IMG/VR virus record: IMGVR_UViG_2526164630_000029
Location: 1 to 5,487 of that record
Source of the DNA: a virus
Taxonomy: Duplodnaviria > Heunggongvirae > Uroviricota > Caudoviricetes
Length of the DNA stretch: 5,487 nucleotides
Direction: 5' to 3' (one strand)
A program made the translations under genes and the position numbers. A model generated the notes under the pieces. It saw nothing but the letters and a program-made list of their open reading frames with translations, did not search any database and had not been told where the DNA came from. How positions within the stretch are numbered: position 1 is the first letter of the stretch; each line of letters opens with the position of its first letter. Positions 868 through 1,608 of the stretch are shown here, piece after piece.

Positions 868-1608
868 ATGACACAGACAGAATCAGCGATTCTGGCGCAT
901 GCCCGGCGGTGTGTGCCTGCGGAGTCGTGCGGCTTCGTGGTGAGAACGCCGGAGGGGGAGCGGTATATCCCTTGTGTGAATATCTCTGCAGAGCCGGAGG
1001 CGTATTTTCGTATTGCACCGGAAGACTGGCTGCGGGCAGAGATGCAGGGGGAGATTGTGGCACTGGTCCACAGTCATCCCGGTGGTCTGCCCTGGCTGAG
1101 CGAGGCCGACCGGCGGCTGCAGATAAAAAGTGCACTGTCCTGGTGGCTGGTCTGCCGGGGGAAATTCATAAATTCCGCTGTGTGCCACATCTGACAGGAC
1201 GGCGCTTTGAGCACGGGGTGACGGACTGTTACACGCTGTTCCGGGATGCTTATCATCTGGCGGGGACTGAAATGCCGGATTTTGAGCGTGAGGATGACTG
1301 GTGGCGCAACGGTCAGAACTTTACCTGGACAATATGGCGGTCACCGGCTTTTACCGGGTGCCCCTGTCCTCTGGACAGGCGGGCGATATTCTGCTGTGCT
1401 GCTTTGGTGCTTCGGTACCGAACCATGCCGCCATTTACTGCGGCAACGGTGAGCTGCTTCACCATCTGCCTGAACAACTGAGTAAACGGGAGAGGTATTC
1501 CGAAAAATGGCAACGACGAACGCATTCTGTCTGGCGTCACCGCACTGGCACGTATCTGCCTTCACGGGGATTTACAACGATTTGGCCGCCGCCTCAGCCT
1601 GTATGTGA
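868..1608 (+). CDS. K: Tail tip assembly protein K (lambda gpK-like; N-terminal JAMM/MPN-type domain plus C-terminal NlpC/P60-type domain), interrupted by three apparent 1-nt deletions
   Basis: ATG at 868, 6 nt after the L stop. Segment 1 (868-~1160) has the MPN/JAMM motif HSHPGGLPWLSEAD. Segment 2 (ORF 909..1481 frame, ~1161-1318) reads EIHKFRCVPHLTGRRFEHGVTDCYTLFRDAYHLAGTEMPDFEREDDWWRNGQN. Segment 3 (ORF 1301..1705 frame, ~1319-1542) reads YLDNMAVTGFYRVPLSSGQAGDILLCCFGASVPNHAAIYCGNGELLHHLPEQLSKRERYSEKWQRRTHSVWRHR. Segment 4 (1543-1608) reads HWHVSAFTGIYNDLAAASACM and ends at TGA 1606-1608. Each junction is a -1 shift. The start at 868 is inferred from the sequence; the lambda annotation starts K further in, at a position that is ATT (1012) here. 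Confidence 0.82.

Follow-up and report, generated by a model that had tools for sequence, protein, structure and literature searches.

A one-base deletion in a G-run splits tail-tip gene K on a prophage contig of Escherichia coli DEC11C and is probably a sequencing or assembly error

The lambda-type tail-tip gene K is interrupted, in the 5,487-nucleotide stretch of DNA analysed here (the window), at a run of five Gs (G5) that is one base shorter than the run of six (G6) in intact K genes. The deposited sequence truly contains this frame break, which is ordinary under either explanation, error or mutation. Given the context in which the run is found, it is probable that G5 arose technically, during sequencing or assembly of a low-quality draft contig, with G6 undercalled by one base. 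The window is a stand-alone DEC11C draft contig over a tail-tip module of which each genome contains numerous near-identical copies. According to the proposed explanation, the real K would be one protein of 247 aa that, like gpK of lambda, joins a JAB/MPN metalloprotease-like domain at its N terminus to an NlpC/P60 cysteine-peptidase domain at its C terminus. The split of K would then be a consensus error, like the other six single-base indels of the window.

The origin of the window is indicated by two of its conceptual products. Exact-sequence look-up has revealed that the 235-aa product of the frameshifted L gene is identical to EHX00341.1 of E. coli DEC11C, for which a single contig is on record, and that the 108-aa product of the frame starting at 868 is identical to EHX00342.1 of the same strain. 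These exact matches identify the window as the whole of one contig of the DEC11C draft assembly. E. coli DEC11C is an O45:H2 strain (PMC8924650; PMC6028524). K lies between L and I, and the same M-L-K-I-(sodC)-J order is present in annotated relatives. The genes of the window are as follows.

5' part of the window: end of M, within the tail-tip module of a lambda-like prophage (from the open reading frames and annotated relatives).
164 to 858, + strand: L of the tail-tip module, with its start at 164 and a tblastn match over 164-858.
868 to 1605, + strand: K, between L and I, with its start ATG at 868 and a tblastn match over 868-1605.
1605 to 2182, + strand: I of the tail-tip module, with a GTG start at 1605 and a tblastn match over 1605-2182.
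2376 to 2903, minus strand: sodC, an intact gene for a Cu/Zn superoxide dismutase of 175 aa, between I and J.
From 3037: the first two thirds of J, of the tail-tip module.

The sodC DNA is identical to the sodC of the relatives. Just 3' of this gene, at 2347-2369, lies a perfect 9-bp G+C-rich hairpin (GGTAAGGGG cccgc CCCCTTACC), which is probably the sodC terminator. K-like DNA itself is widespread: 4359 of 5426 complete E. coli genomes have it, and a single genome may hold it at as many as 15 places.

When intact K (the 247-aa protein of strain FWSEC0003) is compared with the window by tblastn, the match is strong (E = 7.6e-133), and it comes in four pieces and three frames; a single uninterrupted K open reading frame of about 247 codons was not found in the window. 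Amino acids 1-99 are matched in frame 1 and amino acids 98-152 in frame 3; consequently, the switch of frame falls on the G-run. A G5 run is by itself unremarkable, and the window contains 20 homopolymers of length 5 and three of length 6. What appears non-random is that the homology switches frame exactly at this one. K as written is either a pseudogene or a mis-sequenced gene. The pieces of K, and the single-base differences from intact relatives in and around it, are listed here by position.

753, + strand: deletion in L, CCACCACC to CCACACC, shifting the last 35 codons of L (comparator alignment, tblastn).
857 to 860, + strand: insertion, AAA to AAAA, at the L stop and the L-K spacer, leaving coding undisturbed (comparator alignment).
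868 to 1164, + strand: K fragment 1, aa 1-99, frame 1, the JAB/MPN part with Glu19 and HSHPGGLPWLSEAD (HxHx7Sx2D) (tblastn, Pfam, translation).
1157 to 1161, + strand: G5 homopolymer, one base short of the G6 in intact K, in the context ctgcc-ggggg-aaattc (comparator alignment).
1158 to 1322, + strand: K fragment 2, aa 98-152, frame 3, the start of the NlpC/P60 part with the catalytic-Cys context GVTDCYTLF (tblastn, translation).
1192 to 1194, + strand: premature TGA ending the 108-aa product of the 868 frame (ORF translation).
Before 1319, + strand: deletion in K, CC to C (AACCTTT to AACTTT) (comparator alignment).
1319 to 1543, + strand: K fragment 3, aa 152-226, frame 2, bounded by two one-base deletions (tblastn, alignment).
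Before 1543, + strand: deletion in K, CC to C (CGCCACT to CGCACT) (comparator alignment).
1543 to 1608, + strand: K fragment 4, aa 227-247 and the TGA stop, frame 1, overlapping the GTG start of I at 1605 (tblastn, translation).
2125, + strand: deletion in I, GGACATC to GGCATC, outside a homopolymer (comparator alignment, tblastn).
5277, + strand: deletion in J, CGGAGG to CGAGG, by which the true continuation of J moves to the frame of 5271 (alignment with relatives).

An earlier note on this DNA had drawn attention to the frame break, and its description is borne out, with one caveat. Inspection of the sequence finds the GGGGG at 1157-1161, where the note had placed it, and ORF translation agrees that the 868 frame is closed by the TGA at 1192-1194; the ORF 868..1194 terminates in ...SALSWWLVCRGKFINSAVCHI / ...WWLVCRGKFINSAVCHI before that stop. 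The continuation of K from the G-run, which had been assigned to the -1 frame, is indeed read there: EIHKFRCVPHLTGRRFEHGVTDCYTLFRDAY shares its frame with ORF 909..1481, and this frame is -1 to that of 868; the tblastn match passes from frame 1 to frame 3 at 1158-1164. Likewise, the proposed split between an MPN/JAMM part and an NlpC/P60 part is supported by Pfam, which places Prok-JAB (PF14464) at aa 3-105 (E = 3.1e-15, and 1.2e-15 for K fragment 1) and, in the repaired K sequence, NLPC_P60 (PF00877) at aa 111-224 (E = 3.9e-12). The run itself makes up codons 97-98 (Arg97-Gly98) and by these borders falls in the linker that joins the two domains. From the translation, K has the JAMM motif, composed of Glu19 and HSHPGGLPWLSEAD.

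Alignment to gpK homologues, the check that the earlier note had recommended, shows G6 and a single open reading frame in the intact homologues: the run has six Gs in comparator loci L001, L002 and L016-L018, and GGGGGG occupies the K site in all intact comparators. The claim that six Gs would restore the frame is correct for the first break. However, it does not hold for the whole of K, in which two breaks would remain; with just the sixth G put back, the frame of K is lost at aa 151 and a stop follows at 1481. In the unrepaired window, the NlpC/P60 domain is scattered over frames 3, 2, and 1. Restoring all three missing bases yields a 247-aa K that differs by one amino acid from WP_106913054.1 of the O45:H2 strain FWSEC0003 and matches the PHROGs family phrog_30 with E = 1.3e-158. 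In its repaired length, its two domains, and its gene order, the gene resembles the lambda-type tail tip assembly protein K (RefSeq 'C40 family peptidase', e.g. WP_106913054.1, WP_012816788.1; phrog_30). It is unlike that protein in that the window has it in four pieces and three frames, so that the K start codon would yield only a 108-aa JAB fragment. Two other PHROGs families, phrog_2635 (which matches K aa 1-132) and phrog_2552 (aa 108-247), are separate halves of K, and split K ORF calls in phage records must be frequent enough to seed such half-families.

The case for an error rests on the company that G5 keeps. Compared with intact relatives, the window has seven single-base indels, at 753, 860, 1157, 1319, 1543, 2125, and 5277. 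Deletions account for six of them, and all but one of the seven fall in L, K (which has three), I, and J. They are unevenly spread, with none within 2126-5276, a point that weighs against an artefact. Indels other than G5 were absent from the 17 comparator loci. Furthermore, neither the 1319 nor the 1543 deletion turned up among 1901 complete E. coli records (6497 places), where the best match (99.0%) has both gaps present. Between 601 and 1800, the window differs from its nearest relative, the FWSEC0003 copy at 2.016 Mb, by five indels and one substitution. Private indels thus far outnumber substitutions, as would be expected of an artefact. If 10% of real differences are assumed to be indels, the probability that at least five of six differences would be of this kind is 5.5e-5. 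From this setting we infer a technical cause for G5.

At the level of single sites, the indels form a less tidy picture. Among runs of at least five bases, 1 of 23 is affected; four of the indels lie in 2-mers, and one is in non-repeat DNA. That so few long runs are affected argues against genuine slippage, which would favour long runs. It must also be counted against an artefact that indels mostly in 2-mers are not the classic long-homopolymer signature of 454 sequencing. Taken as a group, these changes nevertheless resemble the homopolymer and single-base indel errors of draft or long-read-only assemblies, being isolated, one base long, mostly deletions, private, accompanied by few substitutions, and located on a short contig of repeated prophage DNA. 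Other assemblies that carry G5 have similar scattered homopolymer deletions. The window differs from typical homopolymer errors in its many changes in 2-mers and its few in long runs. Miscalls linked to methylation motifs were considered and rejected: alignment by eye places only one or two indels near a CCWGG site, with no consistent link. In I, the reading frame (1605-2345) overruns its true end (about 2185) by about 160 nt because of the deletion at 2125, crossing the intergenic region and extending nearly to the sodC terminator and generating a spurious 246-aa product.

The window is also a mosaic, having segments nearly identical to three different prophages of FWSEC0003 (O45:H2): positions 1-600 to that at 1.733 Mb, 601-1800 to that at 2.016 Mb, and 1801-3600 to that at 3.375 Mb. 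This three-way structure could be a chimera of collapsed repeats or the product of true recombination, and it fits the expectation for a consensus over collapsed repeats. The evidence from the sequencing history is circumstantial. The DEC drafts presumably come from the same centre as a sister paper, which reports the use, at about the same period, of 454 Titanium with Celera, or Illumina HiSeq with Velvet; the DEC set may have been sequenced by 454.

G5 is found outside the window as well. The 64-nt junction is matched by 702 complete E. coli records, of which 14 have G5 and 688 have G6. Among IMG/VR stretches, the run is G4 in none, G5 in four, G6 in 113, and G7 in two, so that G5 makes up 4/117 of the stretches with either G5 or G6. 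The G5 copies lie on at least six distinct K backbones, and on the best-sampled of these in RefSeq, G5 is seen in one record vs 21 with G6. Taken together, these two results rule out a lineage-inherited G5 allele. When G5 was sought in 64 phage records with the K junction, none had it, and all have G6 and a single open reading frame. It was likewise absent from 29 K-bearing metagenome contigs, of which 28 have G6 and the 29th has GGGGGT; a lone 20-nt G5 match in a metagenome (L143) proved to be a chance match in unrelated DNA with no K copy. In the three G5 copies inspected, the RefSeq annotation reads 'frameshifted', and there are other frameshifted genes nearby. The earlier note had held that homologues split at this point, together with raw reads clearly supporting five Gs, would refute its reading. 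No such split is seen: the 0/64 phage records and the flagging of the inspected complete-genome copies rule out that K is naturally split at the G-run in its relatives. The frameshifted K pseudogenes of NZ_CP148282.1, NZ_CP045975.1, and NZ_AP027170.1, which are flagged as such by PGAP, have a 64-nt G5 junction and a 108-aa conceptual product identical to those of the window. They differ from it in having one break (743 nt vs 744 in intact K), whereas the window has three (741 nt).

Copies with G5 tend to have damaged neighbours. L or I is also broken at 9 of 17 G5 loci vs 18 of 118 G6 loci (Fisher p = 0.0012), the broken and intact classes having been set by tblastn; counts from DNA alignment were unsuitable, since a 5-nt intergenic indel and the divergence of I alleles distorted them. 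In CP014752 (L005/L006), JAVQNZ01 (L009/L010), and JAVQOB01 (L011/L012), G5 is present in the K of two different prophages per genome, and in the JAVQ* assemblies, many adjacent tail genes are broken up by homopolymer deletions. CP014752, JAVQNZ01, and JAVQOB01 look like systematically error-prone long-contig assemblies. A recurrent one-base indel site is also found in L, at L016 coordinate ~684, where L006, L020, L035, L083, L089, and L092, from unrelated assemblies, show deletions and insertions; this is probably another homopolymer hot spot. The G-run of K can therefore be described as a recurrent site of one-base length change, at which most cases look technical and some may be genuine slippage.

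Both of the causes offered in the earlier note, a sequencing indel and genuine slippage, are retained here, with the context favouring error without proving it. A genuine G6 to G5 slippage deletion in a DEC11C prophage would make K a pseudogene and leave the phage with no tail tip, a case of ordinary cryptic lambdoid prophage decay. G-runs are known slippage sites, and multi-prophage EHEC-type genomes hold many defective prophages. In addition, the length of this run varies in both directions in IMG/VR (-1 in the four G5 and +1 in the two G7 stretches), G5 is shared by at least six distinct backbones in other assemblies, and RefSeq annotates the inspected complete-genome copies as frameshifted pseudogenes. 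Since G5 is not unique to the window, DEC11C may truly carry it. By rough estimate, an error at the K G-run of the window has a chance of ~0.5-2%, only ~1-10x the frequency of G5 among other K copies (<=0.5%). However, the nearest relatives of the K allele of the window, only one substitution apart, all have G6, and consequently, a real G5 would have to be peculiar to DEC11C. Its occurrence where six further private single-base indels but hardly any substitutions are seen is the pattern expected of errors rather than of evolution. Furthermore, G5 is not inherited along the well-sampled backbone, and it is absent from the phage records (n=64) and the K-bearing metagenome contigs (n=29). On balance, a genuine deletion appears somewhat unlikely. 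A bolder version of the same idea holds that the G6 linker tract is a recurrent slippage hot spot, which has repeatedly disabled prophage tail tips on at least six independent backbones and of which the DEC11C G5 would be a real instance; this is very doubtful.

It can also be postulated that the G-run has a function, as a site of recoding or phase variation at which ribosomal or transcriptional slippage, or a G5/G6 switch, would yield either the JAB/MPN domain alone or a JAB-NlpC/P60 fusion. The position of the run exactly in the interdomain linker, the G5 and G7 variants that flank the G6 majority, and the existence of separate PHROGs families for the N- and C-terminal halves of K would all be compatible with such a role. 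A comparable case among tail genes is the programmed -1 ribosomal frameshift of lambda G/GT, with which K shares a lambdoid tail gene cluster and a change to the -1 frame. However, the G/GT frameshift is conserved and uses a slippery heptamer, whereas the K shift is missing from nearly all homologues: ~95-99% of K copies have G6 and one open reading frame, and the two-frame arrangement is not conserved. The X XXY YYZ slippery heptamer was not found at the site (the 0-frame sequence is TGC CGG GGG AAA), and the RNA of 1162-1260, which folds at -27.1 kcal/mol (z = -0.41 vs shuffles), provides no stimulatory structure. A shift of frame at the G-run would, moreover, still leave two breaks in K, both at non-slippery sites. 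The absent heptamer, the absent downstream structure, and these two further breaks speak against a programmed -1 frameshift in K. Efficient transcriptional slippage, like a contingency locus, would normally call for a longer run than 5-6 Gs; contingency loci typically have tracts of at least eight and frequent bidirectional variants in close relatives, while the K tract has 5-6 Gs and is dominated by G6. A functional role for the run is thus hardly credible, and an undercalled G6 in the draft contig is still the preferred explanation.

For biology these results mean little, and their main consequence is a practical one, for how such sequences are read. EHX00341.1, EHX00342.1, and similar ~108-aa 'cell wall hydrolase' or MPN fragments in public databases are products of frameshifted K genes, and the ~108-aa fragments do not represent a distinct stand-alone JAB protein family. 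It would be inadvisable to infer decay of the DEC11C prophage from this contig without the support of reads. If G5 is genuine, it adds another inactivated tail gene in a cryptic prophage, a situation that is already well known. If the hot spot were real, the loss of one G in the linker of K would often be the initial event by which EHEC-type prophages become locked into the chromosome.
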